Source: Acidobacteriota bacterium (GTDB lineage Bacteria > Acidobacteriota > Terriglobia > Bryobacterales > JACQDG01). Taken from it: 37,592 nt of DNA. The position numbers and the translations under genes were made by a program. Of this stretch, positions 8,771-37,470 are shown in pieces. The stretch's first letter is position 1; each line of letters starts with the position of its first letter. Under the pieces are notes generated by a model. That model worked only from the letters and a program-made list of their open reading frames with translations. It did not search any database and was not told where the DNA came from. The DNA lies in assembly GCA_016201195.1 (NCBI GenBank), contig JACQDI010000021.1, forward strand, positions 1-37,592, given 5' to 3'.

Positions 8771-9504
8771 GGCTTACCTCCTCTCTTGAAAAGCGATGTC
8801 AGGAACTCCCGCGGATAAACGCGCCAGGCGCGCGCGGTGTGCGCGCCCGACGTCGCGTTGAAAGCATGCTGGATCTTCTTCTGATTCAGGAGCTCGGACA
8901 GCTTCCGGACCGGCTCGATCCACCAAACCGCGTGCCACAGCCGGGCCGCGCCCACTGCTGGCCTGCACCTGGCACCGGGGCCAGCGGCTGCCTGCGCTTC
9001 GGGCGCGTACAATCAAAAACCATGCCGGGGTCCGGCTCATGGGCGTCTCCGCAATGTCAGTACGCCTGCGTACTATTTTCAACTTTATTATAGCCGCCAG
9101 CCTTCCGCTGGTCAAGAAAGTTGCAGCATGCTTCGAGACGTAGTGGATCGGCGACGCCTTCCTGACCCGCTCTTCGTAGGTCGCCTCGTCTCCTGCCAGA
9201 AACCGCCGGTTACCTCCCTGGCGGGCGCGAGCCGGCAGCTTGGACATGTCGGACACTCCGGCCATCGAGATCACCGCGCGCACCCTGCTCGACACATCGG
9301 GGCATGGCGTTTCGCCTCGGAAGCCAGCCTCATCGGGAATCACGCCCAGGCACATCACCAGATGCCCGCCGGCGGGATGAACTCCTGGCGAGGCCCCTGC
9401 GCCGGAGGGCCCGGTTGAGGCGCTTGCGCCCAGACGTGGAGGGATGCGACGCTGAGCGCTGCCAGCGCCGCGCCGATACGTGCGCACACCAGGGTTGTTC
9501 GTAT
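8767..9504 (-). pseudogene. Alpha/beta-hydrolase (esterase-like) remnant in three frames
   Basis: One frame carries a signal-peptide-like stretch, (I)RTTLVCARIGAALAALSVASLHVWAQA. A second frame carries the nucleophile-elbow region with Pro where Ser is expected (GVHPAGGHLVMCLG...ASPIHYVSKHAATFL). Only about 45 codons separate the two, where about 100 would be expected. A third frame carries a C-terminal piece (EPVRKLSELLNQKKIQHAFNATSGAHT...REFLTSLFKRGGKP) whose TGA overlaps the receptor ATG as ATGA at 8767-8770. Confidence 0.5.
9061..9115 (-). promoter_or_regulatory. Promoter/operator module G (inside the hydrolase remnant, facing the frameshifted receptor)
   Basis: On the minus strand: TTGACC (9115-9110), N17, TATAAT (9092-9087), 14 nt, then the palindrome TACGCAGGCGTA (9072-9061). 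This is a symmetric variant of the TACGT-NN-ACGTA box. Confidence 0.5.
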
Positions 9505-9533
9505 GACTCCCCTCGCGGCCGTTCGGTTACAAA

Positions 9534-9589
9534 TACGTGAACGTACCGTCTATGCCTTCTATGGTATCTTTTTTTCTGCGGCCGGTCAA
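9534..9589 (-). promoter_or_regulatory. Promoter/operator module A (upstream of the hydrolase remnant)
   Basis: On the minus strand: TTGACC (9589-9584), N17, TACCAT (9566-9561), 15 nt, then TACGTTCACGTA (9545-9534). Confidence 0.6.
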
Positions 9590-9597
9590 GGGATCCG

Positions 9598-9642
9598 GAG
9601 ACGACTGAGACGACCCGGAGACGACAGGGACCCGGAGCCGAC
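9598..9642. repeat. Short direct repeats GAGACGAC x3 plus GAGCCGAC
   Basis: GAGACGAC occurs at 9598-9605, 9607-9614 and 9618-9625, and the variant GAGCCGAC at 9635-9642. The repeats lie immediately upstream of the -35 of module A, within the divergent A/B promoter region. Confidence 0.6.
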
Positions 9643-9774: not shown

Positions 9775-9804
9775 TTGATCCGGTACGTAGACGTATGGCA
9801 TAAT
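9775..9804 (+). promoter_or_regulatory. Promoter/operator module B (upstream of the 9861 hydrolase gene)
   Basis: TTGATC (9775-9780), N18, CATAAT (9799-9804). The palindrome TACGTAGACGTA (9784-9795) lies inside the spacer. Confidence 0.55.
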
Positions 9805-9860
9805 CGTTGACGCGATCTTGTAAGTGCGACGAGGAGCTCGTCGGGAAGGGATGAACAGCA

Positions 9861-10769
9861 ATGAAGCGTCTGAAGCGTCTGGCGCAACGCGCGTTGCCGT
9901 GGTGGCTGGGCGTGGTGTGTCTGTGCCCTGTGCCAGCGGCCGAGAACTGGGGTGTCGTGGGGCTGAATGTCAAAGAACTCGGCAGGCCGGAGACCGGATG
10001 GTGGCCTTCGAATCTGGAATACCACTCCTATTCTTACGAAAAAGGCGACGTAAAGATGTCCGGGGTGGTCGTCAAGCCTCAAGGAAAGGGCCCTTTTCCG
10101 GGGGTTGTCTTCAACCACGGCGGCGGCTCGACCGCAATGGCCGAGGGCATCGAGTACGGCGTTCAATTTGCGCTAGGCGGGTACGTTTCGATCACCTGCG
10201 ACGGCACACAATCCCGGCTGGAACGCATGGGCGAGTGGAGGAGGAAAGGGCAGCCGGACAGGACTGGACTGCACCCCCCAGCCAGCATTTGGGACAACGA
10301 TGAGAACCGCAAGAGGGCTCTGGCCAACATAGAGATTCTGCACAACCTTACCTTTGTCGATCCGGCCAAGATCGCCATGGCCGGCCTCAGCATGGGCGGG
10401 TACCTCACCATCGAGATGATCCAGATGACCGACCGGATCCGGGTCGCCGCCGTCATGGCCGCGGGCAGCCGGGCGGCGGACCGATTCCCCGGCCCCAGCG
10501 GGAGTTTCGAGAACATCCGGGCGCCGCTGCTGCTGGTCGCCGGGGAGGTGGATCCGGTGGTTCCTCTATCCGCCATCCTGGAGCTGAAGCGCACGCTCGA
10601 CAAACACGGCAAGAAATCGAAACTGCTCGTGTTTCCGGGCGAGTCGCACAACGTAATTCAGACCCGAATCAACACGGTCTTTGAGCACGTGCTGGAGTGG
10701 TTCGATCGGCACTTCGGCCGTCCAGGCCGACCCAACCGGTCCTTACTGCCTCCGACGGTGCAATACTGA
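9861..10769 (+). CDS. Dienelactone-hydrolase/S9-like alpha/beta hydrolase, secreted
   Basis: Signal peptide MKRLKRLAQRALPWWLGVVCLCPVPAAE. A catalytic triad is recognisable: GLSMGG (Ser), GEVDPVVP (Asp) and GESHNV (His). Confidence 0.85.
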   Translation: MKRLKRLAQRALPWWLGVVCLCPVPAAENWGVVGLNVKELGRPETGWWPSNLEYHSYSYEKGDVKMSGVVVKPQGKGPFPGVVFNHGGGSTAMAEGIEYGVQFALGGYVSITCDGTQSRLERMGEWRRKGQPDRTGLHPPASIWDNDENRKRALANIEILHNLTFVDPAKIAMAGLSMGGYLTIEMIQMTDRIRVAAVMAAGSRAADRFPGPSGSFENIRAPLLLVAGEVDPVVPLSAILELKRTLDKHGKKSKLLVFPGESHNVIQTRINTVFEHVLEWFDRHFGRPGRPNRSLLPPTVQY

Positions 10770-11596
10770 CCCTGCTGGGCCGCACGTAAACCGGCGATTA
10801 GTGGTCTGCGCCTGCGGTGAGATTTGCGGGCGGAGGCGAGACAGAGGATTATCTCTCCGCCACATGACTGTCCGATGAACTCCAAGGTCGCTTCCGGCGC
10901 CCGGCGATATCTTTCGCCGCCCGGGCGATTTGTGAAGCCGTGGTCTTCGCCCTCGAACAGCTCCAGCCGCGCCTCCTTGCCGGGCTGTTGGAACGTATCA
11001 CCCCTTTGGGCGATGGTTTCGGCGTCGTGCAGCGCGCCAGCCAGGATGGATACCACGCCGAACAGCTCCCGGTGCTTGAGTCCGATCTTGGCCGCTCCCG
11101 CCCCGCCCATGGAAAAGCCTTCAATCATCCGGCCCTCGCGCCGGGGAATGGTGCGGTACGTCTGGTCGATGTGCGGGATCAGGCCCTGAATGATGACACT
11201 CTGCACCGGCGTTTTGCCGTCGGCGGAATCGACGTAGCTGCTGTAGGGCAATCCGTTGACGCCGACCAGAATCATGGCCGGCGCCTTGCCCTCCCGAATC
11301 GCTTGGTCCAGCCGCCCGGCGACCCAGCCGCTGCCACGTTGATTCCCGCCCCGCCCATGCAGCCAGTAGAGCACCGGGAACCGCTGATCCGTGTGCTTCT
11401 CGTGTGCGGGCGGAAGATAGATCAGATAGCTGACCTCGGCATTGATGGTTTTGCTCCTGAAAGTGCGGTATTTCATGCCGGCGGGTTCGCTGGTGTCCGG
11501 GTCGGCCCAATGGCTGGGCCTGGGTGCGCTGCCACGTTGTTGGGCCGTCACCAGGGACGCGCACGCGGAGAACAACAACCGTAGCGCGCCGCGCAC
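10658..11596 (-). CDS. Putative esterase (PF00756-like alpha/beta hydrolase); both ends uncertain
   Basis: VSYLIYLPPAHEK...FPVLYWLHGRGG...IEGFSMGGAGAA...GEDHGF. A probable GTG start at 11596 gives the signal peptide (M)RGALRLLFSACASLVTAQQ. The open frame runs 112 nt into the 3' end of the convergent gene, and the Ser-to-His distance is unusually short. Confidence 0.6.
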   Translation of the reverse strand: MRGALRLLFSACASLVTAQQRGSAPRPSHWADPDTSEPAGMKYRTFRSKTINAEVSYLIYLPPAHEKHTDQRFPVLYWLHGRGGNQRGSGWVAGRLDQAIREGKAPAMILVGVNGLPYSSYVDSADGKTPVQSVIIQGLIPHIDQTYRTIPRREGRMIEGFSMGGAGAAKIGLKHRELFGVVSILAGALHDAETIAQRGDTFQQPGKEARLELFEGEDHGFTNRPGGERYRRAPEATLEFIGQSCGGEIILCLASARKSHRRRRPLIAGLRAAQQGQYCTVGGSKDRLGRPGRPKCRSNHSSTCSKTVLIRV

Positions 11597-11634
11597 ACGT
11601 GAGATTTCGCCCCAGCCGTACCTCCGTCTATGCG

Positions 11635-11886
11635 TCACTGTCCCCCTCCCTTCCACTGCCAGTCGGTGTCGAAATGGCCTGCCTGGGAGATTTTCCCGCC
11701 ACGAACGACCACGTAATCCGGCGGCAGGTTCACCGGCAGGATGAAGCCTGCACTGAGGCCGTTGTCCGGCAGGCTGAGCAGCCGGCCCGTCCAAACCACG
11801 ACATAGCGGTCCGGGTTTCCGGGATTGGGATGGATAAAGACTCGGTCCCGGTACCGGTTGTACATCACGTGGCGGTCGTTCTCCAC
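11635..11886 (-). CDS. Hypothetical small ORF (possibly a gene fragment)
   Basis: 83-aa ORF with a GTG start and no recognisable family. It is wedged between the receptor remnant and the esterase. The frame stays open upstream of the listed start. Confidence 0.2.
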   Translation of the reverse strand: MENDRHVMYNRYRDRVFIHPNPGNPDRYVVVWTGRLLSLPDNGLSAGFILPVNLPPDYVVVRGGKISQAGHFDTDWQWKGGGQ

Positions 11887-11894
11887 CCCCGGCG

Positions 11895-12409
11895 TCAGAA
11901 CCCGTACTTGAGGCCGAACTGGATCACCCTGGCCTGGCCGGCGCTCAGAATCCTGCCAAAATTCGCGCTGTTCAAGGTGCTGTTCGGATTGTTCAGGTTG
12001 ACCTGGTTGAAGAAGTTGAAGAACTCGGAACGGAACTGGAGACGGCGGCGCTCCCGCAGCCGGAGTGTCTTGAAAAACGAAACCGTCCAGCTCATCGAGC
12101 CCGGGCCGTAAAGGAGATTGCGGCCGGCGTTACCGGCGAAGCCGTCGGGCGCCGCCACAAACACGGCCGTGTTGAAGTACCCCGCGATCCGCTCGTCCCT
12201 GGGCCTGTCCTCCGAAAGACGGGGATTGCCGGTGAGGTTCGGGCGGTCATTGCTGCTGCCGTCCAGGTTCGTATCGCGGCCCGAGACGATGTTGAACGGG
12301 CTGCCGCTGTCGAACCGGGTGATTCCATTGAGCTGCCAGCCGCTTAGCACGTGCCGCCCGATCCGGCCCCAACGACGGATCTCGGGGATCTCCCACACCT
12401 CTTCTGAGC
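11895..12409 (-). pseudogene. C-terminal ~170-aa remnant of a TonB-dependent receptor
   Basis: WEIPEIRRWGRIGRHVLSGWQLNGITRFDSGSPFN...LQFRSEFFNFFNQVNLNNPN...RVIQFGLKYGF aligns with the last ~170 aa of receptor 1..2319. Homology begins within a few nt of the MarR stop codon (12410-12412). Plug, N-terminal domain and promoter are all absent. Confidence 0.75.
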
Positions 12410-12922
12410 CTACCTGAAGTTCTGCTCTTTGCTCTTTCCTGAACCTTCTTCTGGCCGACCCGTGCTTCTGGAATTCGTCATAACCTCGGCGACGCGCTCC
12501 AACGTGCCCAATACCGTCACTCGCACCGCCCGCGGGAAACATTCCTCCAGCTTCTGCCGGAGGTCCTCGCAGCTTTCGACCAGCAACCCAAGCAGCCGGC
12601 GCCCGGCAGCCGTCAGGTAAACGCGGCGCGACCGGCCATCCTGAGCGTGAATCTTCCGCCGGATGAGGTTCCGCTTCTCCAGCAGGGCGACCATGGCGGC
12701 AATCGTATTAGGGTCGGAAAACATCCGGCGCGCCAGTTCCTTCTGCGTGATGCCTCCCTGCTGGTTCAGCACCTTCAACAGGACGAACTGATCTGCGGTA
12801 GCGTCGAGTGGGGCAAAACGAAACTCAACTGTGCGGTGCATCGTCAGATAGGCGCCGCGAAGCCTCATAGCCGTAGACCAGGGAAACGCGCGGGGGTCCT
12901 TGCGAATCGATCTCTTCACCAT
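12410..12922 (-). CDS. MarR-family transcriptional regulator
   Basis: Winged-helix core: DQFVLLKVLNQQGGITQKELARRMFSDPNTIAAMVALLEKRNLIRRKIHAQDGRSRRVYLTAAGRRLL. I prefer the ATG at 12922 over the listed TTG at 12940. Confidence 0.85.
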   Translation of the reverse strand: MVKRSIRKDPRAFPWSTAMRLRGAYLTMHRTVEFRFAPLDATADQFVLLKVLNQQGGITQKELARRMFSDPNTIAAMVALLEKRNLIRRKIHAQDGRSRRVYLTAAGRRLLGLLVESCEDLRQKLEECFPRAVRVTVLGTLERVAEVMTNSRSTGRPEEGSGKSKEQNFR

Positions 12923-13226
12923 ACCCACAAGTCTATCCAATCCACCCAGTTTTCGTCACCTACCGAATGTTCACGGTAACGGTATTTACCCTGCCAGGCA
13001 TCGACTGTCAGGACGACGCCGGCTTCGCTACATGCAATCAGGCTGCCGGGCAGGCGGAGATTGGCCAGGACGAGGCCGGCCAGTTCGCGCTCAGGGCCTG
13101 GGCACAGCAACGCGCAATCCAAACGTTCACTGGGGCCCGGGGCCGTGAACGGTCCCGTAGGTCCTGTTGGATCTGCCCCGGCGCCAAAGGCCTGTGAATG
13201 CCTGTCATGCCTGTCAATGATTCGTA

Positions 13227-13278
13227 TTGACAGCTCGGCGGGAAAGGTCTACACTTCTTACGTCGGTACGTGTACGTA
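13227..13278 (+). promoter_or_regulatory. Promoter/operator module C (orphan; no gene downstream on this strand)
   Basis: TTGACA (13227-13232), N17, TACACT (13250-13255), 11 nt, then TACGTGTACGTA (13267-13278). Extra half-sites flank it: TACGT at 13259-13263 and TTACG at 13281-13285. The -35 is the right arm of the inverted repeat TGTCAAT-N7-ATTGACA (13212-13232). Confidence 0.55.
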
Positions 13279-13532: not shown

Positions 13533-14210
13533 CTAGCGAGCTGGCGCCAACACCTTGACGGCGATGTTGCGGAAGCGGTGGTAGCCGTTCCATCGCTTTT
13601 CCATATGCACCTGCAGGGCGATCATCCCGTCCTCGGCGCCATCGGCCGTGCGGTTCGCCGTATCCTTCCAGTCGGTAATCTTGAGGCCGTTCAGCCACAC
13701 CGTGATGTGCGGCGGGCTGCCCTCGATCCGGGCGCGCAGCGTATTCCAGTCCTCCTTCCGCCAGACCTTTTCCCATCCCTCCGCTCGATGCAAGGGGATC
13801 CCCGGCCTGTCCAGGCCGTTGAGCTTTTCTCCAAAGATCCCGCCGATGTTACCACGTTCGAGGTAGTCGATCAGGACTTGGTAGGCCTGGCCCCTCTCGT
13901 TGGAGCGGAGAAACAGGCCGCCGTCACAGCCCCAATCCGGCTTGATTTCCAGGTAAACCTCGACGTCCTTATACCTTGTATCGGTCAGCAGGATGCCGCC
14001 GTTGCCCGGCCGGTCCTGGCTGGCGAACAGCACGCTGTCTTCGACACGCCACGCCTGCGTGTTCCCGTGATGGTTCGTTTGACTGATATGCCACCCGGAA
14101 AGGTCTTTCCCGTTGAAGATCGGTGTAAAGCCGGGGGGGATCTGGCCGGTCTGCCCGAACAGGGGCAGGGCCAGCAAACACGCAACAGCGAGATTCGGGC
14201 AGATGCGCAT
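13533..14210 (-). CDS. DUF1080 (3-keto-disaccharide-hydrolase-like) domain protein, secreted
   Basis: MRICPNLAVACLLALPLFGQ signal peptide, then FNGKDLSGWH...WRVEDSVL...ALQVH...FRNIAVKVL, the typical DUF1080 jelly-roll pattern. I prefer the ATG at 14210 (GGGAG 6 nt upstream) over the listed start at 14255. Confidence 0.85.
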   Translation of the reverse strand: MRICPNLAVACLLALPLFGQTGQIPPGFTPIFNGKDLSGWHISQTNHHGNTQAWRVEDSVLFASQDRPGNGGILLTDTRYKDVEVYLEIKPDWGCDGGLFLRSNERGQAYQVLIDYLERGNIGGIFGEKLNGLDRPGIPLHRAEGWEKVWRKEDWNTLRARIEGSPPHITVWLNGLKITDWKDTANRTADGAEDGMIALQVHMEKRWNGYHRFRNIAVKVLAPAR

Positions 14211-14225
14211 ATCGGGCTCCCATGG

Positions 14226-14245
14226 TTCCTTTGGTTTCCTTTGGT
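14226..14245. repeat. Perfect 10-nt tandem duplication TTCCTTTGGT x2
   Basis: Copies at 14226-14235 and 14236-14245, in the divergent DUF1080 / oxidoreductase intergenic region. Confidence 0.8.
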
Positions 14246-14319
14246 TGCCCAGCATAGCAGGTCGCCAGCGTCTGTGCTAGAATTCCGCCGAGAATCCGGA
14301 CCAACCAGGGAGGTGATTT

Positions 14320-26744: not shown

Positions 26745-29700
26745 TCAACGGAGGAGCTTCAACCCGAACTGCACGATCCGGGGCTGGTTGGCTTGCGCGC
26801 TCACCACCCCAAACAACGGACTGCCGAAACTGGTGTTCGGCACGCCGAATTTCGGCGTGTTCGTTAGGTTGAAGAACTCCGCCCGGAATTGCAACTTCAG
26901 CTTCTCGGTCAGGCGGGTGGCTTTAGCCAGGGTAAGGTTCAGCCCAATCTCGCCGTCCGACCGGCTGTCGGAGAACGTGCGAGGCGCATTGCCGAACCGG
27001 AACGGCTCGGGATTGCTGAATTGAGAGGTATCAAACCACTGGGTCGGCGCGGGGTTGGATAGTTTCGTCTTCACGCCAGACCAGTTGGGTCGCTGGCCGC
27101 CGCCTTGCGAAAACGTGGTGTTCACAGCCGAGGCTACGCCGAGCGGACCGCCGCTGAAAGCCGAAAAGATCGCGGCCACCTCCCAACCCGTCAGCAACTT
27201 CTCGCTCACTCCCCGGAGGTTCTTGCCGACGGGCAACTCGTAGACCGGGTTGATCACCAGGCGGTGAGTCTGATTGAGCGACGACACCGCCCACTCCGAG
27301 CGAAGGTCGTTCCAGTTTTGGATGTTCCCGCCGCCCAGCGCCTCGCCAGCCCACGCGCCGGTTCCCATATCCATGAGCTTCGAGAAGGTGTAAGCACCAT
27401 GGAGCAAGAAACCCTGGCTGTAACGTTTTTCAACCTTGACTTGAAGCGAATGGTACGAAGACGAGCCCCAATTTGCGTTGGTGGAAGTGGCGGCGTCGAA
27501 GTGAGGGAACGGTCGCAGCAGTTGTGCGCGAGAAACGGTTCTTTGCGAGAGGGGCCCAGACGCAATCTGCCCGAAGAACGGGTTAGGCGCCTGCGCCCGA
27601 AGCTCCTGTCCAAGCGCGAGAGCGGCATCGGGAAGCTGGTTCAGCGTCCGGCTGAGTGGATACTTCAAGCCGCGGCTGCCGGCATATGCCACGTCGAAGA
27701 GGATGCCGCCGCGCAGTTGCTGCTGGATGTTGAAGTTCCACTGGCCGGAGTAAGGCTTGCGGTTGCCGCGATCATAAAACGAAACCCCCTGTCCGAGGAG
27801 CGTGGCCGGCCCGAGCTTGCTGCCCGTGGGTTGGGTGATCCCATCCGGGTAGGGATTACTTAACGTGTTGAGCGGGGTCACTCCATCCAGACTGGTAACC
27901 AGCGTCGTGGTGGCCGAGAATCCGCTGGTCCCGAAGCCAATGTCCGTCGTCGAACCAACGAAGATCCCGGCGCCCGCTCGCAACACCGTGTGCGGGGTGG
28001 CTTTGAAGGCGAATCCGACCCGGGGCGCGAGATTGTTGCGGTCCGGTTCGGCCTGGGACCGGGAGGCGCCGTTGACGCCGACGAACGTCAGCGCGCCGCG
28101 CAGATCGAGCCCCGGAGCATTCAGCGGCGGCCTGAGACGGTAGTCGAAGTTAGTAAGCTGGTTGAACCGGTCCGTGAGGGGCGTCTCGTAGTCGTAGCGG
28201 AGCCCGAGATTGAGGGTCAGCCGCGGCGTGACCTTGAAGTCGTCTTGCAGGAACAGGCCGTAGTAGATGACCTGCTGGGCCGGCGCAGGGGTTATGTTCA
28301 CCGAGCCGCTGCCCACACCGAGCAGAAACGAGGCAAGCGCTAAGCCCGCTGTGGCGCTGGCCCGGCTCGGGTCCGGTCCTTGCGTCCACTCATTGCTGAA
28401 GGAAAACAGCCTGCCCACATCCGGGAACTGGTAGGGATTTAGCCGGACGCACCAATACTCAAAGCCCGTCCTCAGGTTGTGTCGGGCCAGCGATTTTCTC
28501 AGGTTTGATTGCCAGGCCCAGGTGTCCGACCCGGAACGAATCACCCCGGTGTGACCGAGATCGCCGAAACCGGTGACGCGGATGCCCGGAAAGGCGAACG
28601 GCTCTCCCATTTGCCGCGCCAGTCCCGCGGGAAACCCCAGGGTCGTGATGTCAAAGCCATTGCTGTACGGCGTGCGGAAGTTCGTCACGCGGGAGTAAGA
28701 GGCGCGCCAGGTGGCCAGCAGAGTGGGAGTAAAGGTATAGACATCTTCTACGACGACGTTGCGCCGGCCGAAGGACTGGGGCCCCGAGGTTGGCGTCGAG
28801 ATCGTGTACTCACGGCCATATGCGGGAGCCACAAGCGTTGGCGTGTCGTCGTAGGAAAAACGTGCGAAAAATCGGTGCCGCTCGGGAAAGTAGTGGTCCA
28901 CCCGGAAGCTGACCGTGTCTTTTCGGATGCGATCGGCGTCGCTGCTGCGGGAAAAGTTCTGGACGCCGGTGACCGGATCACCAGAGGTGTTTGGTGGAGG
29001 ATAGAATCGCGAGATACTGCGCGCCACCGGGTCGATTCGACTCACCGGGATGACGTTGCCGGGAAAAGGTGTGCGGATGAAGCCGGAGCCGGCCGGGTTG
29101 GGTCGGGTCGAGAAGGGATCGAAGATCTGGATCACCTGGTCGGCGGCATTCCGCGTGGCGCTGAAGTCGCCGGCCAGTTGCGCGGCGGTCGGCATCGTGG
29201 TGGTCACGGTAACGCCGGTGGCGAGGCGCACAAACTCGGCGTTGCCGAAAAAGAAGGTCTTGTTGCGGCCGTCGTAAGCCCGCGGGATGACCACCGGGCC
29301 GCCCGCTGAGCCGCCGAACTGGTTCATCCGAAAGGGCGGCCGGCGGGTTCCGGCGCGGTTAGCGAACCAGTTGTTCGCGTTGAGCTTGTCATTCCGAAGG
29401 AACTCGTAGAGAACAAAGTGCGGATCATTGCTACCAGCCCGCGTCACCACGTTGAAGACTCCCCCGGCGGCCCGGCCATACTCGGCGCTGAAGCTGTTGG
29501 TCTCAATCTTGAACTCTTGGAAGAAATCCGGGTTCGGGAACAACACCGGGCCGTTCGATGCCGAGTCGGTATTGGGCGCCCCGTCCAGCAGGAACAGATT
29601 CTGGTTAGCCCGCGCGCCATTGATGGAGGCAAACTGGGTATTGGCCAGATTGACCGGCAGGTTGTTCCAGCTGGCCGGGGCTCGAACCCCCGGAACGAGA

Positions 29701-30173
29701 TTGGCCAACGCGTAAGGGTTGCGGCCCAGCAGCGGCAGCTCGGTGATTTGCTTGCCGCCTACAATCTGGCCAAGCGTGGAGGTTTCGCTGTCCAGCAGCA
29801 CGGCTTGCGCGGAGACCTCCACGGATTGGGTGATGCTGCCCACTTGCAGGGTGACGTCCAGCCGCGCCACCTGTTGCACGGCGAGCCGCAAGTCCAAGTG
29901 CCGGACGGGCGTAAAGCCCTCCTTTGTGATCCAGACGTTGTAGGTCCCCGGCGGAACCGAGGGGAAGTGGTAGTAACCTTCCTGATTCGTTTGGTTTCGG
30001 GTCTCAACGCCGCTCTCAGCGGACTTCACGCTGACGGTCACTGCAGGAACAACCGCGCCACTGGGATCGGTGACCCTGCCGGTTAGCTGCGCGGTCTGGG
30101 CGTTCACAAGCAGCACATTGACGGAAACAAACGCCGCCGTCGAAAGTATGCGGGAAAGAATTCTGTGGTTCAT
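26745..30173 (-). CDS. TonB-dependent receptor (CarboxypepD_reg N-domain + plug + barrel), intact
   Basis: ATG at 30173 follows AGGAGGAG. Signal peptide MNHRILSRILSTAAFVSVNVLLVNAQTAQ, then LTGRVTDPSGAVVPAVTV... The C-terminus is ...LQFRAEFFNLTNTPKFG...RIVQFGLKLLR. Confidence 0.92.
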   Translation of the reverse strand: MNHRILSRILSTAAFVSVNVLLVNAQTAQLTGRVTDPSGAVVPAVTVSVKSAESGVETRNQTNQEGYYHFPSVPPGTYNVWITKEGFTPVRHLDLRLAVQQVARLDVTLQVGSITQSVEVSAQAVLLDSETSTLGQIVGGKQITELPLLGRNPYALANLVPGVRAPASWNNLPVNLANTQFASINGARANQNLFLLDGAPNTDSASNGPVLFPNPDFFQEFKIETNSFSAEYGRAAGGVFNVVTRAGSNDPHFVLYEFLRNDKLNANNWFANRAGTRRPPFRMNQFGGSAGGPVVIPRAYDGRNKTFFFGNAEFVRLATGVTVTTTMPTAAQLAGDFSATRNAADQVIQIFDPFSTRPNPAGSGFIRTPFPGNVIPVSRIDPVARSISRFYPPPNTSGDPVTGVQNFSRSSDADRIRKDTVSFRVDHYFPERHRFFARFSYDDTPTLVAPAYGREYTISTPTSGPQSFGRRNVVVEDVYTFTPTLLATWRASYSRVTNFRTPYSNGFDITTLGFPAGLARQMGEPFAFPGIRVTGFGDLGHTGVIRSGSDTWAWQSNLRKSLARHNLRTGFEYWCVRLNPYQFPDVGRLFSFSNEWTQGPDPSRASATAGLALASFLLGVGSGSVNITPAPAQQVIYYGLFLQDDFKVTPRLTLNLGLRYDYETPLTDRFNQLTNFDYRLRPPLNAPGLDLRGALTFVGVNGASRSQAEPDRNNLAPRVGFAFKATPHTVLRAGAGIFVGSTTDIGFGTSGFSATTTLVTSLDGVTPLNTLSNPYPDGITQPTGSKLGPATLLGQGVSFYDRGNRKPYSGQWNFNIQQQLRGGILFDVAYAGSRGLKYPLSRTLNQLPDAALALGQELRAQAPNPFFGQIASGPLSQRTVSRAQLLRPFPHFDAATSTNANWGSSSYHSLQVKVEKRYSQGFLLHGAYTFSKLMDMGTGAWAGEALGGGNIQNWNDLRSEWAVSSLNQTHRLVINPVYELPVGKNLRGVSEKLLTGWEVAAIFSAFSGGPLGVASAVNTTFSQGGGQRPNWSGVKTKLSNPAPTQWFDTSQFSNPEPFRFGNAPRTFSDSRSDGEIGLNLTLAKATRLTEKLKLQFRAEFFNLTNTPKFGVPNTSFGSPLFGVVSAQANQPRIVQFGLKLLR

Positions 30174-30208: not shown

Positions 30209-30403
30209 TCATACGTACACGTAACCCTTGGGAATAGTACCTCCCTGTCCCCTTCCGGTCAAGGGGATCTCGCTGGGGGCGCTGGGGGGGCGCGACATGG
30301 AAGATCCCTGCCCGCCGCAGGGTGGTCTCTGGGCTGGAAGTGAGGATGCGAGCCCGAGCAATAACGCGACCAGACAGGGTATGCGTCGAAGCCCTTTCAC
30401 CAT
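30209..30403 (-). CDS. Doubtful small ORF (64 aa) with signal-peptide-like N-terminus
   Basis: ATG at 30403 is preceded by AAGGGGG. It encodes MVKGLRRIPCLVALLLGLASSLPAQ... The ORF lies between modules E and D, and its last ~18 codons are encoded by promoter/operator D itself. GC3 is only about two thirds by my count. Confidence 0.2.
   Translation of the reverse strand: MVKGLRRIPCLVALLLGLASSLPAQRPPCGGQGSSMSRPPSAPSEIPLTGRGQGGTIPKGYVYV
30212..30262 (-). promoter_or_regulatory. Promoter/operator module D (receptor 26745..30173)
   Basis: On the minus strand: TTGACC (30262-30257), N17, TACTAT (30239-30234), 10 nt, then TACGTGTACGTA (30223-30212). The receptor ATG is 39 nt further on. Confidence 0.7.
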
Positions 30404-30553: not shown

Positions 30554-30603
30554 TACGTCTACGTATTCTCTGGAATTGTACACCTTAGCTTAGGGGATGT
30601 CAA
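30554..30603 (-). promoter_or_regulatory. Promoter/operator module E (tandem, ~340 bp upstream of D)
   Basis: On the minus strand: TTGACA (30603-30598), N17, TACAAT (30580-30575), 9 nt, then TACGTAGACGTA (30565-30554). Confidence 0.65.
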
Positions 30604-30752
30604 TTATAAAAGTTGACCGACTGGCCCAGGAACGTGTCGAGGCCCAGCGTGTTGCCAACCGGCTGGAGAATGCCGCCGGGAAACGGGTTGCTTAACGTAG
30701 CCGCAGGCGTCAGAACCGGGCTCAACAAAGCGCACGTAAGTCCTCCGTCGCT
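30603..30752 (-). pseudogene. Internal ~50-aa fragment of a TonB-dependent receptor barrel
   Basis: LLSPVLTPAATLSNPFPGGILQPVGNTLGLDTFLGQSVNFYN aligns with SLDGVTPLNTLSNPYPDGITQPTGSKLGPATLLGQGVSFYD of receptor 26745..30173. It ends abruptly at the -35 hexamer of module E (TATAATTGACA). Confidence 0.6.
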
Positions 30753-30784
30753 CTGGCACTGCTCGGAACGACGCGCGGCTGGCG

Positions 30785-31798
30785 CTACAGTGCCACGGAG
30801 CAGCCGGGCACCGCCGGGACGTCGCCCAGCCCCGGCGTCGTAAGCATAGCCGTGGGCCGCAGCGGGACCTGGTGAACCAGGGTGGCGTCGACTGGCTTGG
30901 GCTTGGTTTTCAGGCGGGTTTCCAGGTATTTCTGCACTTTGGCGAAGACGGCTGCGGCCTCTTCGGTGCGGTGGTCGCCCCAAAAGGCGAAGCAGTGCGG
31001 CTGGCTGGGAACCGCAAACTCTTGCACGTCTTTGCTGGCCGCCTTCAGCTCCGGAACCAGGATCTGCTCGTTGACGCGGTTGATCAAGTGCTGGTCACTG
31101 TGGACGATCAGGATGGGGCAGCGGATCTTGCGGACCTTCGCACGGGTGAATTGCTGCAGCTCGGGTGTGTAGTATTTCTTCGGCTCGACCCAAATCGGCC
31201 GTGCGTCGGCGGGCGTGTGCAGCGGTCCGGACTTCGGCGTGCTCTTGTTCATCATGCCGGCGAACAGATCCCCCGCGGGTTCTTCGGCCACAATGGCGGC
31301 CAGCGTCTCCTCGCCGGCGACCTCGAGCGCCAGGCTGCCGCCGCCGCTGCAGCCGTACACGACGACACTGGCCGGATCCACGCCCGCAAGCTTTTTCGCA
31401 TAGCGCACCATGGCCAGGCAGTCCACCAGGGCATCGGTCGACTGCGGATCCTCATCCCGCCTCCGAAACGTGGGGGCCAGGATCACGTACCCCGCCGCCA
31501 GAGCCCGGCACTGAGTGGGCGCGGCCAGCGACCACTGTTTCAGCGAACTGACCGGACGAGGCGTGAGGCCGCCGTGCAGGAAAATCATCACCGGAAGCTT
31601 CCCTGCTCCCGGCGGCCGCCGCAGGATGGCGGTGGCTTTGTTTCCATCCGGCGTCTCCACCCAGATCTGCTCGGCCGGGCTGGTCTGCTCTGAAATCTCG
31701 GGACTGGTGATCCCCGCGCCCGCGCGGCACAGCCCGGGTATCGCGGCCGCAGCCGCGGCCAGCAGTTCTCGTCTCGTCATCGATTCTCGTATCCGCAT
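30785..31798 (-). CDS. Alpha/beta hydrolase (dienelactone hydrolase/S9-like), Tat signal
   Basis: ATG at 31798 follows GGGAGGAAGG. Tat motif MRIRESMTRRELLAAAAAAIPG. Other features: PVMIFLHGG, the nucleophile elbow GCSGGG, and PILIVHSDQ. Confidence 0.85.
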   Translation of the reverse strand: MRIRESMTRRELLAAAAAAIPGLCRAGAGITSPEISEQTSPAEQIWVETPDGNKATAILRRPPGAGKLPVMIFLHGGLTPRPVSSLKQWSLAAPTQCRALAAGYVILAPTFRRRDEDPQSTDALVDCLAMVRYAKKLAGVDPASVVVYGCSGGGSLALEVAGEETLAAIVAEEPAGDLFAGMMNKSTPKSGPLHTPADARPIWVEPKKYYTPELQQFTRAKVRKIRCPILIVHSDQHLINRVNEQILVPELKAASKDVQEFAVPSQPHCFAFWGDHRTEEAAAVFAKVQKYLETRLKTKPKPVDATLVHQVPLRPTAMLTTPGLGDVPAVPGCSVAL

Positions 31799-31873
31799 CA
31801 CACCTTCCTCCCTTCTGGTTTTCAAAGTCAATGCTGTTGCCTGAAGATTGCTCACGGCGCATCAAAGACGAAG

Positions 31874-33889
31874 CTACTGCACGAGACTCATCCATACCGT
31901 CATGTGCGAGACGCCGCGATTGGCCCAAGCGTAATAGGGGATCAGCCGGATACGCAGCGGGTGATACCGCGCCGGGCTCAAGAATCGGTACAGCAGGCCA
32001 GCCCAGTTGCCGTCCTGCCAGTACCGCGCCTCTCCTTCCAGCACGGTGATGCCCCCAAGCAAAGAGGGCTCGTGGCGCGGCTCGAGGCGGATATCGGCAG
32101 GCAACGCCACGTGCTCGACGCGCACTCCTTCGGGCAAGTCTGGCGATTCTAGGCAGTAGACAATCGGCCCGCGCTCCACAGCCGCCTGTCCCCGCAACTC
32201 TTCCACGAGCGGGTTGGCCACAACGAGCCTCGGCTTCATCGGTAGAGCAAGGTCGATCCGGTCGCCCGCCCTCCACAGTCGGCTGACTCTGCAATACGTG
32301 CCTGGCCGCGGCGCGGAGTCGGCGACGGGCTGACCGTTGACCTGGACCGTGGCGCCGTCGGCCCAAGCCGGGATGCGAAGCATGATATCCAGAGGTTCAC
32401 TGCCCGCCTCCTGGACGGTAACACCGATTTTGCCGTCCCACGGATAGTCGGTCCGCTGGGCCAGCACGACACTCGTTCCCCCCGGCAGCCTCGTCTTGAG
32501 AAGGTTGCTGCCATACAAGTTGACCCACACGGCGTTTCGAGAGACGCTATAAGCCCACTCGTGCACCTTGGCAATTGTGCGCACGACGCTCGGAGGGCAG
32601 CAAAAACCGTACGGGGTTTTCGTGTTGTCCGTCCATCGCTGCAGGCTGTCGTTGCGCATCATGGGCATCTCCGCCCCGTAGCGGCGCAGCACGTTGGTGT
32701 AGAAGAACTCGGTTCCGTTGACGCCGACTCCAGAGAGCATGCTGTTGTAGAGGACGCGCTCCATTACATCGGCATAGCTCGCGTCGCCAGTCACCCCGAG
32801 CAGCCGCCAGTTCCACATCGCGTTGGCGATGTTGGCGCAGGTCTCGTTGTAAGCCAGGCGGTTCGGCAATTGATACTCCGTGCCGAAAGCCTCATGCACC
32901 GGATCCTGGCGTGACGAGCGGCCGTAATGGATCGCGCCGACGCCGCCGGTGATGCACATCTTCTGCGCGGTCACGTCCCGCCAGATGCGCTCGAGCGCAT
33001 CCCACAACGCCTGCTCGCCCGTCTCCCCGTAGACGTCCGTGGCACCGGCGTAGAGATATATTCCGGTCACCGCGTGGCCTACCGATTCGGTCTCCTTACG
33101 TAGAGGAACGCGGGCCTGGTTCAGATCACTGCCTCCCGGAGCTGATCCCCGCATGTCCACGAAGATGCCTGCCAGCTCGAGATACTTCGGATTCCGTGTG
33201 GTCCGATACAGGTCCGCCACCCCCATGATGTTGGATGGGTTGAAGCCGAAGTGGGCCAATTCCACCGGGCGCGGTTGGAAGACGTTGTAAAGGTAGTCGG
33301 CCAGTCGGATGGCGATCTCCAGGAAGTTGCGCTTGCCGGTGGCGCGGTGATGGACGCAGGCCGCTGTCATCAGGTGGCCCATGTTGTACAACTCGTGGTT
33401 ACCGGGTCTCTCCCATCTCTTCCGCCCGGTCAGTTGGATTTGCGTCGAGATGTAGCCATCCGGAGCCTGCGCCTTGCCAATCACGGCGATCACGTCATCC
33501 ATGAGCCGGTCAAGCTTTTCCTCACGGGTGATCGCATATACGTGTGCGACCGCCTCCAGCCACTTGTACACGTCCCCGTCGCTCCAGTTCTTGCCCTGAA
33601 ACTCTCCTTTCTGCAGGCCGGCGGCGATGCGAAGATTCGTGAACAGGGCTCCGTTGCCCGGCCTTTGCAGCACCTCCCACATCCGGTGGACCATCACGTT
33701 ACGGCAGAGTTCGAATTTGTTGAACCAGAATCCCCGGGTCCACCGCGCGTCACCCAGGTCGACGCTCTTCAGCTTAACGAAAGGGCTGTAAGACGTCGCC
33801 GTGTCACCGCGGTTCTGGGGCCAAAGGCTGCCGGGAACGCTCAGCAGCCAAAAAAGAGCGATGGGAATGCGTACGCCTTGCTTCGTCAT
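31874..33889 (-). CDS. Glycoside hydrolase family 127 (DUF1680, beta-L-arabinofuranosidase-type)
   Basis: AGGAGG RBS and a signal peptide. Motifs: NWSDGDVYKWLEAVAHVY, YNETCANIANAMW and FCCPPSVVRTIA. The last is the Cys-rich site typical of GH127. Confidence 0.9.
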   Translation of the reverse strand: MTKQGVRIPIALFWLLSVPGSLWPQNRGDTATSYSPFVKLKSVDLGDARWTRGFWFNKFELCRNVMVHRMWEVLQRPGNGALFTNLRIAAGLQKGEFQGKNWSDGDVYKWLEAVAHVYAITREEKLDRLMDDVIAVIGKAQAPDGYISTQIQLTGRKRWERPGNHELYNMGHLMTAACVHHRATGKRNFLEIAIRLADYLYNVFQPRPVELAHFGFNPSNIMGVADLYRTTRNPKYLELAGIFVDMRGSAPGGSDLNQARVPLRKETESVGHAVTGIYLYAGATDVYGETGEQALWDALERIWRDVTAQKMCITGGVGAIHYGRSSRQDPVHEAFGTEYQLPNRLAYNETCANIANAMWNWRLLGVTGDASYADVMERVLYNSMLSGVGVNGTEFFYTNVLRRYGAEMPMMRNDSLQRWTDNTKTPYGFCCPPSVVRTIAKVHEWAYSVSRNAVWVNLYGSNLLKTRLPGGTSVVLAQRTDYPWDGKIGVTVQEAGSEPLDIMLRIPAWADGATVQVNGQPVADSAPRPGTYCRVSRLWRAGDRIDLALPMKPRLVVANPLVEELRGQAAVERGPIVYCLESPDLPEGVRVEHVALPADIRLEPRHEPSLLGGITVLEGEARYWQDGNWAGLLYRFLSPARYHPLRIRLIPYYAWANRGVSHMTVWMSLVQ

Positions 33890-33913: not shown

Positions 33914-36900
33914 TCAGAACGACCACTTCAGCGCGAGCTGCACAATGCGGGCTGCCCTCGCCGACGTAATTGCGCCAAAACCCGGCGCGCCGAATACCGT
34001 GTTGGGGCCGCCAAAATTTGGGTGGTTGAAAACATTGAACGCCTCGGCCCGAAATTGAAGACGGTGGTGTTCCAGGAGCGTCGTGTTCTTGACGATGGAG
34101 AAGTCGAAATTGGCCACCCCCGGTGTCCGCACATCCGGGAGCGTTCGGGCCGTGTTGCCGAATTTCCACGGTTCCGGCTGCGAGAAGACGGATGTGTCGA
34201 AGTATCGATTCAGCCGCTGGGCGACAGAACCGTCGAGCTTGGCGCTCCGGCCGTTGTTGTCCGGGCGCAAGTTGCCGCTGCCCACGCGACCAAGGGTGGG
34301 GTTGCTCGCCGTGGTCAGCGCCAATGGAAAACCCGCCAGGAAACTGGTGATCCCGTTCACTTGCCAGCCGCCTAACAACAGAGGGCCCCAGCCGCTGGCC
34401 GCGCTCAGGAACGGCTTCCCTGGCCCGATGGGAAGTTCGTAGACGTAGCTGAACACCAGCGTCTGGGAAACTTCCTGAGAAGAGATGGACCGCTCAGAGC
34501 GGCGGTTGTTATGGTTTTGATAAGCGGGAACTGAGCCGAGGAACCCGAACCTGCCGGGCGCGCCGTCGTCGATCAGCTTGCCGTTGGTGTAGGCGGCGAG
34601 GACCGTCAATCCGTTGGCGAATTGCCGCTCCGCGCGCACCTGCAGCGAGTGGTAGACCGAGGAACCGTACGTAGACTGGCTGCTGGCAAAGCCCGTGAAT
34701 TGCGGGTAAGGCCGCAACAGCTGACCTTGTGCTATCGTGCTCTGGCCAAGCGACGTATTGGCAGGAATGCCGCCGAAAAATGGATTGGGCACCTGCCGCA
34801 GCAGTTCGTTGCCCACATTCAGGAATTGATCAGGGATCTGGTTCCACTGAAGGTCGCCCGCAAGGCGGGTACCCTTACTGCCGGCGTAGGCGGCTTCAAT
34901 GGCAACCAGGCCGGGCAGGCTCTTCTGAATCGCGAAGTTCCACTGCTGCAGGTAGGAGGCTTGTTGACCGCGGTCCATCGAGGCGACGCCGAGGCCTACG
35001 TTGGTCAGGAGCCCTTGGGTGCTTCGCACCGATTGAATGAACCCGCTCGGAAAGGGATCCCGGAGGAAACCGATCGGAATGAATCCGTCGATCGAAGCGA
35101 CGTGCGGCGTGGTGGACGAGAATCCCTCCTGTCCGTTATAGACCCCCTGTTGCCCAGTTCGCGGCGTGTAGAAGATGCCGTAGCCGCCGCGCACAACCAG
35201 GGTGCGCGCCATCTGGTAGGCGAACCCAAACCGCGGGGCCCACCGGTTGAGGGCCATTCCCGCAAGCGTGCGCGAAGCGCCGCCGACTCCAACGAAACCC
35301 ACCCCGCCCCGCCCCTGACGCCCCAGTGCCGGCGACTGCAGCGGACTCGGGGAATCGAAGTCGAGGAAACTTAGACGGTTATAGCGGTCCGTGAGCGAGC
35401 TCTCCGCATCCCACCGCAAACCGAGATTGAGCGTCAGACGAGAACTGGCGCGGATGTCGTCCTGCACAAAAAACGCCAAGTAATAACTCTGGTAATCCTG
35501 TGAGTCGCGGAACTCGATCGATCCGCTCGCCACCGTGCCAACCAAAAAAGAGGCGAACGCGTTGCCAGCGGCCGGGCCCCCACGATTCGGGTCCGGCCCT
35601 TGCGTGAAGTCGGACGTAAACGAGAATATTCCGCCTCCGTTCACCGGCCGCAGGCCGTGGTAGCGAAACAGCCGCGCGTCGGCACCCAGCTTGACAACGT
35701 GCCTGCCGCGCACAAGCGTTGTGTCCCCCGCGGCTGTGTACGTGTTGGCCACATTGTTCAGCAAGGCCGAGCCGACGGCCCCGATGCTGCTCGAGCCGAA
35801 TCCGATATTTGACACCACCATGCCGGTCACGGTCATCTGTGGAAACACCCTCACTTTCTGCGCGGCCGCATAGGCGGCGGGAAAGCCGAGCTGGGTGATG
35901 TCGAAACCAAGGCCCAGAGGTTCGCCTTTGTCGCGAAGGCGCGTGAACCCTAAGCGGAAGGTGGCGATCGTCACCGGCGTGATCGTCCAGGTATCGTGCA
36001 CGCCCGTATTCCATTGAGTGAATCCCTGCGGTCCCGAGGCCGGGTTTGCGACGTTCCCGAATAGGTTAGGCGGCACGACAAAGGTCGCGTTTCGCGACAG
36101 TCGCCCGAAGAACTGGTGAGAGGAGGCAAAGTTGTGATCAATGCGGACGTTCGCCTGATTCGTGGAGAACTTCTCGGGTTCGGTGCTGATGAAGTTGTTG
36201 GCTCCGGTGCGGGGATCGCCGGGCAGATTGGGCGGCGGCCAGTACTCAAGCATCTTCACCGCCACCGGGTCCATACGGCTGCGCGGGATGCGATTGCCCG
36301 GAAACTGGTCGCGGACGCGGCCCCTGCCGTCCGGAGTAACCAGGGTTGTTAAGGGATCAAACACCTCCGCGAGCTGCCCGGTGCTTGTCTGAAGTCTGGA
36401 GAAATCGCCCTGTCGCAGGTCCTCCCTGGGCACCGTGAACAAGAAGGTCTTGCCTGTTCTTTGTCGTAGACCCTCATAACTGACGAAGAAGAACGTCTTG
36501 TCCCGAACGATCCGCCCGCCAAGGGTTCCGCCGAATTGGTTGTAGCGAAAAGGGGGCCTCGCTCTGCCCGTCTGGTTGTTGAACCAGTTGTTGGCGTCCA
36601 GCTTGTCGTTTCGCAAAAAGTCGTACACGGTCCCATGGAACTGATTACTTCCGGACCTCAGGCTCACGTTGACCACGCCGCCGCCAGTCCTGCCGAACTC
36701 TGCCGCGACGCTGTTAGACTGCACCTTGAATTCCTGGGTTGCGTCAATCGAGGGGATGATGGCTAGTTGGTTAAATTGGCCGACCGTGTTTGGGATACCG
36801 TCGAGCAGTACCTCGTTGCTCAGAGAGGGTCCGCCGTTGGTCGAGAAGTTGGTCAGTGGAATGTTGTTGCCCGGCAGGCTCGGACGTCCGTAGAACACCG

Positions 36901-37393
36901 AGCCAGGTGTGAGTGCGACCAGGTCGAAGGGGTTGCGGCCGTTGAGGGGTAGATCGGCAATCTTGCGGTTATCTACAACGGCTCCTAGCGAGGCCTCGGT
37001 TGTTTGCAGCAGGGGGACGTTGGCGGTCACCACAACAGCCTCCTTCACCTCGCCCAGCTCAAGGAAGAAGTCGATTTGGGCCCTCTGATTGACATGGAGC
37101 ACGATGCCAGAGCGGGTGATTGGCTTAAACCCGGACGCCTGAACGCTGGCCTGGTAATTCCCCGGTGGCAAAACGGGGACCGTGTAGTAGCCCAGGTTGT
37201 TGGAAGTCGCTTCCCGCTTGGCGCCCGTATCCACGTTCAACAGGGTCACCCGTGCGCCCGGTACGACGGCCCCGTTAGGATCGATGATTCTACCCATCAC
37301 TTCTCCGGCGGGCGTCTGCGCGAGAGCGCCGAGCGCCCATGCCAGGGACGCAAGAAACACTCTTCCGGTCGAGCGCAGATTACACTTGGGCAT
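33914..37393 (-). CDS. TonB-dependent receptor (CarboxypepD_reg N-domain + plug + barrel), intact
   Basis: ATG at 37393 follows GAGGAGGGGAGG. N-terminus: MPKCNLRSTGRVFLASLAWALGALAQTPAGEVMGRIIDPNGAVVPGARV... The C-terminus is ...LQFRAEAFNVFNHPNFG...RIVQLALKWSF. Confidence 0.92.
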   Translation of the reverse strand: MPKCNLRSTGRVFLASLAWALGALAQTPAGEVMGRIIDPNGAVVPGARVTLLNVDTGAKREATSNNLGYYTVPVLPPGNYQASVQASGFKPITRSGIVLHVNQRAQIDFFLELGEVKEAVVVTANVPLLQTTEASLGAVVDNRKIADLPLNGRNPFDLVALTPGSVFYGRPSLPGNNIPLTNFSTNGGPSLSNEVLLDGIPNTVGQFNQLAIIPSIDATQEFKVQSNSVAAEFGRTGGGVVNVSLRSGSNQFHGTVYDFLRNDKLDANNWFNNQTGRARPPFRYNQFGGTLGGRIVRDKTFFFVSYEGLRQRTGKTFLFTVPREDLRQGDFSRLQTSTGQLAEVFDPLTTLVTPDGRGRVRDQFPGNRIPRSRMDPVAVKMLEYWPPPNLPGDPRTGANNFISTEPEKFSTNQANVRIDHNFASSHQFFGRLSRNATFVVPPNLFGNVANPASGPQGFTQWNTGVHDTWTITPVTIATFRLGFTRLRDKGEPLGLGFDITQLGFPAAYAAAQKVRVFPQMTVTGMVVSNIGFGSSSIGAVGSALLNNVANTYTAAGDTTLVRGRHVVKLGADARLFRYHGLRPVNGGGIFSFTSDFTQGPDPNRGGPAAGNAFASFLVGTVASGSIEFRDSQDYQSYYLAFFVQDDIRASSRLTLNLGLRWDAESSLTDRYNRLSFLDFDSPSPLQSPALGRQGRGGVGFVGVGGASRTLAGMALNRWAPRFGFAYQMARTLVVRGGYGIFYTPRTGQQGVYNGQEGFSSTTPHVASIDGFIPIGFLRDPFPSGFIQSVRSTQGLLTNVGLGVASMDRGQQASYLQQWNFAIQKSLPGLVAIEAAYAGSKGTRLAGDLQWNQIPDQFLNVGNELLRQVPNPFFGGIPANTSLGQSTIAQGQLLRPYPQFTGFASSQSTYGSSVYHSLQVRAERQFANGLTVLAAYTNGKLIDDGAPGRFGFLGSVPAYQNHNNRRSERSISSQEVSQTLVFSYVYELPIGPGKPFLSAASGWGPLLLGGWQVNGITSFLAGFPLALTTASNPTLGRVGSGNLRPDNNGRSAKLDGSVAQRLNRYFDTSVFSQPEPWKFGNTARTLPDVRTPGVANFDFSIVKNTTLLEHHRLQFRAEAFNVFNHPNFGGPNTVFGAPGFGAITSARAARIVQLALKWSF

Positions 37394-37420
37394 AGCAACC
37401 TCCCCTCCTCAATCGCCGTG

Positions 37421-37470
37421 TTACGTATACGTAACGACCGAATTATATCAGCCTTGGTTGGCAAGTTCAA
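37421..37470 (-). promoter_or_regulatory. Promoter/operator module F (receptor 33914..37393)
   Basis: On the minus strand: TTGAAC (37470-37465), N17 ending in TGA, TATAAT (37447-37442; an extended -10, TGnTATAAT), 8 nt, then TACGTATACGTA (37433-37422; the 14-bp perfect palindrome TTACGTATACGTAA spans 37434-37421). The ATG is 28 nt downstream. Confidence 0.75.

Follow-up and report, generated by a model that had tools for sequence, protein, structure and literature searches.

A palindrome at seven promoters and its association with a MarR-type regulator in an acidobacterial receptor and esterase gene cluster

The sequence analyzed here, hereafter the window, is a contig of 37,592 bp (JACQDI010000021.1) from a soil bacterium, a Bryobacterales member of the Acidobacteriota. 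It possesses seven copies of a 12-bp palindrome, TACG(T/C)-NN-(A/G)CGTA, located at promoters that include those of TonB-dependent receptor and hydrolase operons. The number of copies is non-random and their position relative to promoter matches is fixed. Moreover, across independent metagenomic lineages the same motif is associated with a subfamily of MarR-family regulators, one member of which is encoded on the contig itself (12410..12922, minus strand). The palindromes are very probably operators of some dimeric DNA-binding protein. Judging from sequence comparisons, the cognate repressor is probably the contig's own MarR protein, which would occupy them as a homodimer.

Promoter and operator modules of the window

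A pattern search with TACGYNNRCGTA returned exactly seven matches, starting at positions 9061, 9534, 9784, 13267, 30212, 30554 and 37422, and these are the seven sites reported in an original prediction that was made from the letters of the window. They are referred to here, in order of position, as sites G, A, B, C, D, E and F. Dinucleotide-preserving shuffles of the window gave a mean of 0.01 matches, in agreement with the ~0.01 chance occurrences that had been estimated from base composition, and 0 of 100 shuffles reached seven. The symmetric variant at 9061-9072 was likewise recovered; the central "AG" that had been given for it is the minus-strand, promoter-oriented reading, whereas the plus strand reads TACGC-CT-GCGTA.

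When up to two mismatches were allowed, a single 1-mismatch site was found, at 34436 within the coding sequence of receptor F, and the 2-mismatch sites all lay in coding DNA at the rate of the shuffle background. Since the mismatch scan adds only such coding-DNA sites, site quality is bimodal, i.e., perfect at promoters and noise elsewhere. Site B is the exact reverse complement of E, as C is of D, and the central dinucleotides are incompatible in the closest pair, A/B. The flanks of the modules (60-mers, compared pairwise without gaps) are 17–42% identical, which is the random level, and the modules are thus not recent copies of one another.

The original prediction paired each palindrome with a near-consensus promoter, and a consensus scan of the whole window recovered the same seven among its ten sigma70-like sites. 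All promoter matches of ≥10/12 belong to the seven modules, and the remaining three sites score 9/12, have 16-nt spacers and lie inside coding DNA. These promoters are consensus matches rather than mapped starts, with the start taken as 7 nt past the -10 element. Spacers of the module promoters are 17–18 nt long. The gap between the -10 element and the palindrome was measured as 14 nt in G, 15 in A, 11 in C, 10 in D, 9 in E and 8 in F, so that these six operators fall between about +2 and +20 relative to the predicted start. Operator B sits instead within the 18-nt spacer between its -35 and -10 elements. Both placements are as first described. Sites placed over the start or in the spacer of strong promoters also support the proposal of a symmetric, i.e., dimeric, repressor that would co-regulate receptor and hydrolase operons.

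The gene content downstream of the seven modules agrees with the targets originally assigned to them, including none for C. Module F (promoter 37470..37442, minus strand, 10/12; operator 37422..37433) lies before a unit comprised of receptor F (37393..33914), a GH127 gene (33889..31874) and an alpha/beta-hydrolase gene (31855..30785). Modules E (promoter 30603..30575, minus strand, 11/12; operator 30554..30565) and D (promoter 30262..30234, minus strand, 9/12; operator 30212..30223) are arranged in tandem. Module E provides an upstream promoter for the TonB-dependent receptor D (30173..26745), with a leader that contains an orphan signal-peptide open reading frame (ORF; MVKGLRRIPCLVALLLGLASSLPAQ..., about 30260-30402, minus strand, between operators E and D) followed by module D, and the unit possibly includes genes further downstream. 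Module B (promoter 9775..9804, plus strand, 9/12; operator 9784..9795) precedes the alpha/beta-hydrolase gene at 9861..10769, and module A (promoter 9589..9561, minus strand, 9/12; operator 9534..9545) precedes a decayed BD-FAE-like esterase ORF (9487..8774). Module G (promoter 9115..9087, minus strand, 11/12; operator 9061..9072, the symmetric variant TACGC-NN-GCGTA) is followed by a minus-strand receptor that is split over two frames (8727..5369) and by a GH129-like gene (5359..3485).

Module C (promoter 13227..13255, plus strand, 10/12; operator 13267..13278) has no sense-strand gene downstream, since it points toward the 3' end of a gene on the minus strand, that of the 3-keto-disaccharide hydrolase (13533..14255; Pfam, 96 bits). 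No hidden gene was found downstream of it by tblastx. Module C may have been left behind by a rearrangement, may act as a roadblock, or may drive an antisense or small RNA. Its -35 element is overlapped by CTGTCAAT-N7-ATTGACAG (13211-13218 and 13226-13233), a perfect inverted repeat with 8-bp arms, which is preceded by two copies of a short direct repeat, GCCTGTCA. This inverted repeat could be a second protein-binding site of the MarR upstream region.

Association of the palindrome with a MarR subfamily

Metagenome contigs were scanned with the pattern TTGAC-N18-TANNNT-N(8-15)-TACGTNNACGTA, which uses no protein information, and at least 120 loci with at least 131 modules matched. Sixteen window proteins were then compared by tblastn with the loci listed, and the counts that follow are among those matches. 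A homologue of the window MarR, 39–50% identical, is encoded in 15 loci. In 12 of these it is the first gene past the module, with the palindrome about 17–40 nt before the start codon. In the remaining three (L099, L118 and L160) the homologue is the second gene of an operon that lies behind the module and diverges from a receptor gene paired with a BD-FAE esterase gene; the promoter of this pair has a degenerate copy of the palindrome. For instance, in L160 (5590-5660, plus strand), as in L118 and L099, the divergent receptor promoter TTGACA-N16-TATAAT is followed by the degenerate copy TACGTATACACA. This arrangement links MarR and receptor in a second lineage. Few loci were matched by the other window proteins: L099, L118 and L160 by the receptors, and one or two loci apiece by the esterase, the sulfatase and the oxidoreductase. 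On unrelated contigs, ranging from 40 to 67% GC, the motif is again found with this MarR family.

A search in the opposite direction, starting from the window MarR, yielded 19 homologues, and contigs of nine lineages were examined. One lineage (P0004, 49% identity) has a MarR-GH129 operon preceded, at a distance of about 100 nt, by a perfect TACGTATACGTA. In a second (P0003, 53%), a MarR-BD-FAE-sulfatase operon is preceded at 28 nt by TACGCATGCGTA, the same symmetric variant that is present at site G. This C/G variant stands 28 nt upstream of the MarR homologue in L207/L208. In another lineage (P0009, 50%), TACGTATGCGTA directly follows TTGACC...TATACT before a nitroreductase-MarR operon, and in a fourth (P0015, 45%) there are two 1-mismatch sites, one before the MarR gene and one before the next gene, an esterase. 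Thus, four of the nine lineages have a good site, whereas the control rate given below would predict roughly 0.04 in the ~2.7 kb of upstream DNA. On this comparison of sequences the association between motif and MarR is real, since the number of lineages so far exceeds expectation, but it is not universal within the subfamily.

The control was comprised of 80 loci (1.6 Mb) around receptor homologues, 32–56% identical, from GTDB species. TACGTNNACGTA was absent from this DNA, and the C/G variant occurred twice, in chance-like places, for a background of 0 perfect and 0.016 one-mismatch sites per kb. No homologue of the window MarR was found in the 1.6 Mb either. The absence of TACGTNNACGTA from 80 control loci means that the motif is not a general acidobacterial receptor signal, nor is it conserved ahead of the receptor homologues of other Acidobacteriota, which counts against a broad "receptor regulon" of the kind first envisaged. 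As read from these loci, the regulon is lineage-specific.

The regulator itself is a MarR-family winged-helix protein. The recorded gene call spans 12410..12868 (152 aa), and initiation at the ATG at 12922 would extend it to 170 aa. It matches PF01047 with 52.7 bits (cutoff 24.6) and PF12802 with 37.3 bits (cutoff 27). Forty-six solved MarR-family structures match it at E ≤ 1e-3, with HosA the best (5e-9) and HosA, MepR and MexR at the top, and no score reaches the level of a curated NCBIfam equivalog. Members of the subfamily show strong conservation of the recognition-helix region (S-D-x-N-T-I/V...L-L-E). A single promoter-like sequence was found for the gene, the weak match GTGACG-N18-TAGACT (12930-12959, minus strand). 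It ends 7 nt short of the ATG at 12922, and an mRNA made from it would have no leader or almost none. Immediately adjoining its -35 element is a palindrome, TACCG-N8-CGGTA (12961-12978). The original prediction regarded the regulator gene as unidentifiable in the window and the MarR gene as merely a positional candidate. Co-occurrence in both the motif-first and the protein-first direction now points to that MarR subfamily.

The subfamily also has a recurrent partner. The gene after MarR encodes a CBM48 and/or PF00756 esterase in L082, L185, L116, L165 and L179, and in L211 the genes after MarR are those of a PF00756 esterase and then of a glucuronoyl-esterase-like protein and LigB. The window has a similar order, with MarR, a receptor fragment and a PF00756 esterase gene (10658..11794). 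Because the pairing recurs across lineages and in the window, the ancestral unit appears to have been an operator, a MarR gene and a CBM48/PF00756 esterase gene. MarR proteins commonly sense phenolic acids. Given this and the conserved esterase, our guess by analogy is that the inducer may be a phenolic or hydroxycinnamic acid freed by the esterases.

Known systems and alternative explanations

Well-studied MarR proteins (MarR, SlyA, OhrR, MepR and HosA) resemble the system of the window in their winged-helix MarR domain and in a palindromic operator over the core promoter or start. They also resemble the homologues of the window protein, in which the regulator gene stands behind its own operator. 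A palindrome of 12 bp is within the usual range of the family; the SlyA operator is TTAGCAAGCTAA. Unlike usual MarR systems, the window has TonB-dependent receptor, carbohydrate-active enzyme (CAZyme) and esterase genes as targets, seven operators within 37.6 kb, and no site at the promoter of the regulator.

The closest precedent for the motif is AmnR, which regulates 2-aminophenol meta-cleavage operons and is of the MarR type; the operator TAG(G/T)ACGTATACGTACTA has been predicted for it, by bioinformatics only (PMC3790839). This prediction was the sole find in the literature on the motif, on MarR with TonB-dependent receptors in Acidobacteria, and on MarR with feruloyl esterase. With that core already predicted for a MarR-type protein, the phrase "uncharacterised repressor regulon" used of the window overstated its novelty. 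AmnR and the window are likened by the predicted operator core alone, with (T)ACGTATACGTA / ACGTATACGT in common; the extended AG...CT flank of the predicted AmnR operator is also present at window site G. They differ in context, that of AmnR being aromatic ring cleavage, whereas no ring-cleavage genes were found among the window ORFs scanned. At least 11 high-GC contigs (L086, L120, L129, L130, L139, L142, L162, L169, L190, L191 and L200) have a promoter and TACGTATACGTA before a gene for 2-hydroxymuconic-semialdehyde dehydrogenase (TIGR03216, 829 bits), e.g., at 11843-13933 in L200. These contigs agree with the AmnR-type operator prediction. In L200 an ORF for a divergent MarR of 183 aa was confirmed, and five other such contigs gave a weak MarR-like tblastn match only. 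The L200-type MarR is only about 35% identical to the window MarR over 65 residues. Plasmid-borne AmnR was considered as a close homologue and set aside, as plasmid matches were limited to MarR proteins of Bacillus and Niallia.

HpaR, the homoprotocatechuate operon repressor of E. coli W and Yersinia, resembles the window MarR in distant sequence similarity and in being a repressor bound over the promoter. A further link is the homologue P0002, which is the last gene of an hpaB-glyoxalase operon. Identity with HpaR was nonetheless rejected, given a TIGR02337 score of 41.8 bits against a cutoff of 121.2 and a different published operator, the footprinted HpaR sites being TTAA-N4-TTAA (PMC7180172).

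Several observations weigh against assigning the palindromes to the MarR protein of the contig. In the window, the promoter of this gene lacks an operator; site C comes closest, 345 nt upstream of the gene start, and belongs to a promoter that faces away, and the best match to a minus-strand promoter beyond C, which could make C the MarR operator, is 7/12. Five of the nine lineages in the protein-first search lack a site with ≤1 mismatch. One of these (P0002, 55%) has a 2-mismatch site only, in the promoter spacer, and P0012, P0020, P0019 and P0011 (39–49%) have none. Perfect 10/10 matches at six of six perfect sites are unusually strict for a transcription-factor regulon. In metagenomes, the same 12-mer also precedes MerR-like, isovaleryl-CoA dehydrogenase, electron transfer flavoprotein (ETF) and ParA-like genes, as well as operons of another MarR clade. 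Finally, the contig is one piece of a metagenome-assembled genome (MAG), elsewhere in which a paralogous regulator may be encoded.

These points bear most directly on the view that the sites are operators of another protein encoded elsewhere, e.g., a MarR paralogue, a MerR/LiuR-like protein or a BlaI/CopY-type protein, with the MarR of the contig a bystander. The lack of a proximal operator, the good site in only four of nine homologue lineages and the other users of the 12-mer all fit it. Against it stand 15 of the motif-first loci, among the matches listed, which place this MarR subfamily right behind the motif, and we regard the view as unlikely. Since unrelated systems use the same 12-mer, the sequence alone does not name the protein; co-occurrence does.

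The individual candidates for such an outside protein fare as follows. BlaI, MecI and CopY share with the window a 5-2-5 palindrome of the form TAC...GTA, a winged-helix dimer and repressor positions, and the original prediction drew this analogy. The BlaI/CopY box is TACAnnTGTA rather than TACGTnnACGTA, i.e., the half-site is TACA, not TACGT. Moreover, no BlaI/Penicillinase_R-type regulator, BlaR1/M56 sensor or MerR protein was matched in the 28 window ORFs scanned, in which small ORFs were not covered exhaustively, and co-occurrence favors MarR over the BlaI/MecI/CopY analogy. Control of the MerR type needs a palindrome centered in an over-long spacer of 19–20 nt. The module promoters have spacers of 17–18 nt, with the palindrome past the -10 element in six modules out of seven, and a MerR/LiuR-type activator site was rejected on these grounds.

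Other loci with the same 12-mer were noted in the metagenome scan. On contigs of low GC (about 44%), namely L145 (2730, 11321, 11444 and 13177), L126, L108, L170 and L192, three to four copies of TACGT(A/G)(T/C)ACGTA occur at divergent promoters. The flanks in L145 and L126 contain a thioredoxin-reductase-like gene, UGSC-family genes and a HadA-like dehydratase gene, and L145 also contains an unrelated MarR_2 regulator; L108, L170 and L192 have dehydratase-like or reductase-like N-termini in common with L145 and L126. Contigs of the L145 type constitute a separate regulon with the same 12-mer. An 18-bp perfect palindrome, TACGTTTACGTAAACGTA, is located 60–106 nt upstream of a conserved protein of ~277 aa with the N-terminus MALKDILVHID... 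and no NCBIfam match (L091 3343-3360, L115 2513-2530, L121 784-801, L149 2970-2987, L159 9763-9780 and L187 1995-2012). Modules with TACGT(A/T)(A/T)ACGTA precede MerR-like regulators in L093, L096, L131 and L177, in L113 and L136, and in L153 and L199 (only L093 was compared with NCBIfam), and they also precede genes with ETF-beta-like and isovaleryl-CoA-dehydrogenase-like N-termini. Presumably these loci resemble a LiuR-type regulon of branched-chain catabolism.

Two explanations that do not invoke a transcriptional operator are very improbable. One is that the palindrome acts as an RNA hairpin in the 5' leader, affecting stability, translation or termination. Six sites would be transcribed near the 5' end, 24-nt segments fold to hairpins of 4–7 bp (-2.7 to -8.3 kcal/mol), and the variant at site G retains complementarity at positions 5/8. 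Yet just one of the seven folds has z < -2 relative to shuffles, and no Rfam match was found in the window at the gathering score. A hairpin also leaves unexplained the strict T5/A8 and the C5/G8 variant, as positions 5–8 form the loop and a 5-8 pair would create an impossible 2-nt loop. Furthermore, site B is in a non-transcribed spacer, site C has no gene downstream, and co-occurrence with the gene of a DNA-binding protein already explains the data.

The second is that the sites serve as crossover points, each with a 2-bp core like those of serine invertases, at which a site-specific recombinase would flip or shuffle promoter and receptor segments. The 5-2-5 geometry with its variable central dinucleotide, the reverse-complementary pairs B/E and C/D, and the several receptor fragments and orphan leaders on the contig are compatible with this scenario. 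On the other hand, no recombinase family was matched by the window ORFs scanned with Pfam, the closest pair of sites is centrally incompatible, and chance alone should yield matching pairs when seven sites fall into 10 dinucleotide classes. In other lineages the motif occurs as a single stable copy between a promoter and a MarR gene, which is the behavior of an operator rather than of a paired recombination site.

That the sites are a chance occurrence or a by-product of recently duplicated promoter cassettes is hardly credible, as it has the small sample size alone in its favor and must contend with seven sites observed against 0.01 expected, flanks at random identity, and recurrence of the motif with the same protein family on unrelated contigs.

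Gene content and a proposed regulatory switch

The contig is a carbohydrate and esterase utilization cluster of an acidobacterium. Its long TonB-dependent receptors have CarboxypepD_reg and OMP_b-brl_4 domains, and their closest homologues are from Bryobacteraceae and Bryobacterales MAGs, the best at 56% identity. No database record with the exact GH127 or receptor F protein was found; part of the contig is duplicated by a single Logan contig of 6.3 kb, and the sample SRR12113413 contains the same sequence. Enzymes encoded include GH127, GH97, GH129-like, a sulfatase, several alpha/beta-hydrolases and esterases, and a 3-keto-disaccharide hydrolase. In addition to the split receptor behind module G, a C-terminal receptor barrel fragment (11895..12398, minus strand) lies between MarR and the PF00756 "putative esterase" gene, which is itself on the minus strand, co-directional with and downstream of MarR. 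An internal receptor-like fragment (30603-30790) is located just upstream of promoter E. The scattered receptor debris suggests repeated rearrangement or decay, or errors in MAG assembly.

We infer binding by the MarR protein, repression (rather than activation) and an effector. In the proposed mechanism, a MarR dimer would bind the 12-bp TACG(T/C)-NN-(A/G)CGTA. In six modules the dimer, at about +2 to +20, would block open-complex formation or promoter escape, whereas in module B it would fill the spacer between the -35 and -10 elements and block binding of the polymerase. A small-molecule effector would release the dimer and turn the promoters on. Two TonB-dependent receptor operons with GH127 and alpha/beta-hydrolases would then be expressed, as would one hydrolase gene and two decayed units. 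The response may also include a sulfatase gene and an unannotated ORF of 842 aa (20676..23204), which are downstream on the same strand. The operator would have spread on the contig from an ancestral MarR-esterase unit to further promoters.

A MarR dimer positioned over a promoter or start is a textbook mechanism, and what is notable here is only the local spread to TonB-dependent receptor operons. Tentatively, a MarR sensor that was ancestrally an autoregulated switch for a CBM48/PF00756 esterase, of the feruloyl or acetyl-xylan type, may have been recruited as a local master repressor of TonB-dependent-receptor/CAZyme operons in this Bryobacterales-like acidobacterium. The value of the finding is practical, in annotation and as a source of biosensor parts, and not conceptual.

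To our knowledge, regulation of the very large complement of TonB-dependent receptors and CAZymes in Acidobacteriota has hardly been described. The contig offers a testable handle on this question: one protein, one 12-bp site and the predicted starts of seven promoters. If the proposal is true, this would be the first readable regulatory code for polysaccharide-utilization-like loci in Acidobacteriota, in which a phenolic side-group freed by esterases would de-repress glycan uptake. Such logic would be unlike the SusR, hybrid two-component and extracytoplasmic function (ECF) sigma schemes of Bacteroidota.

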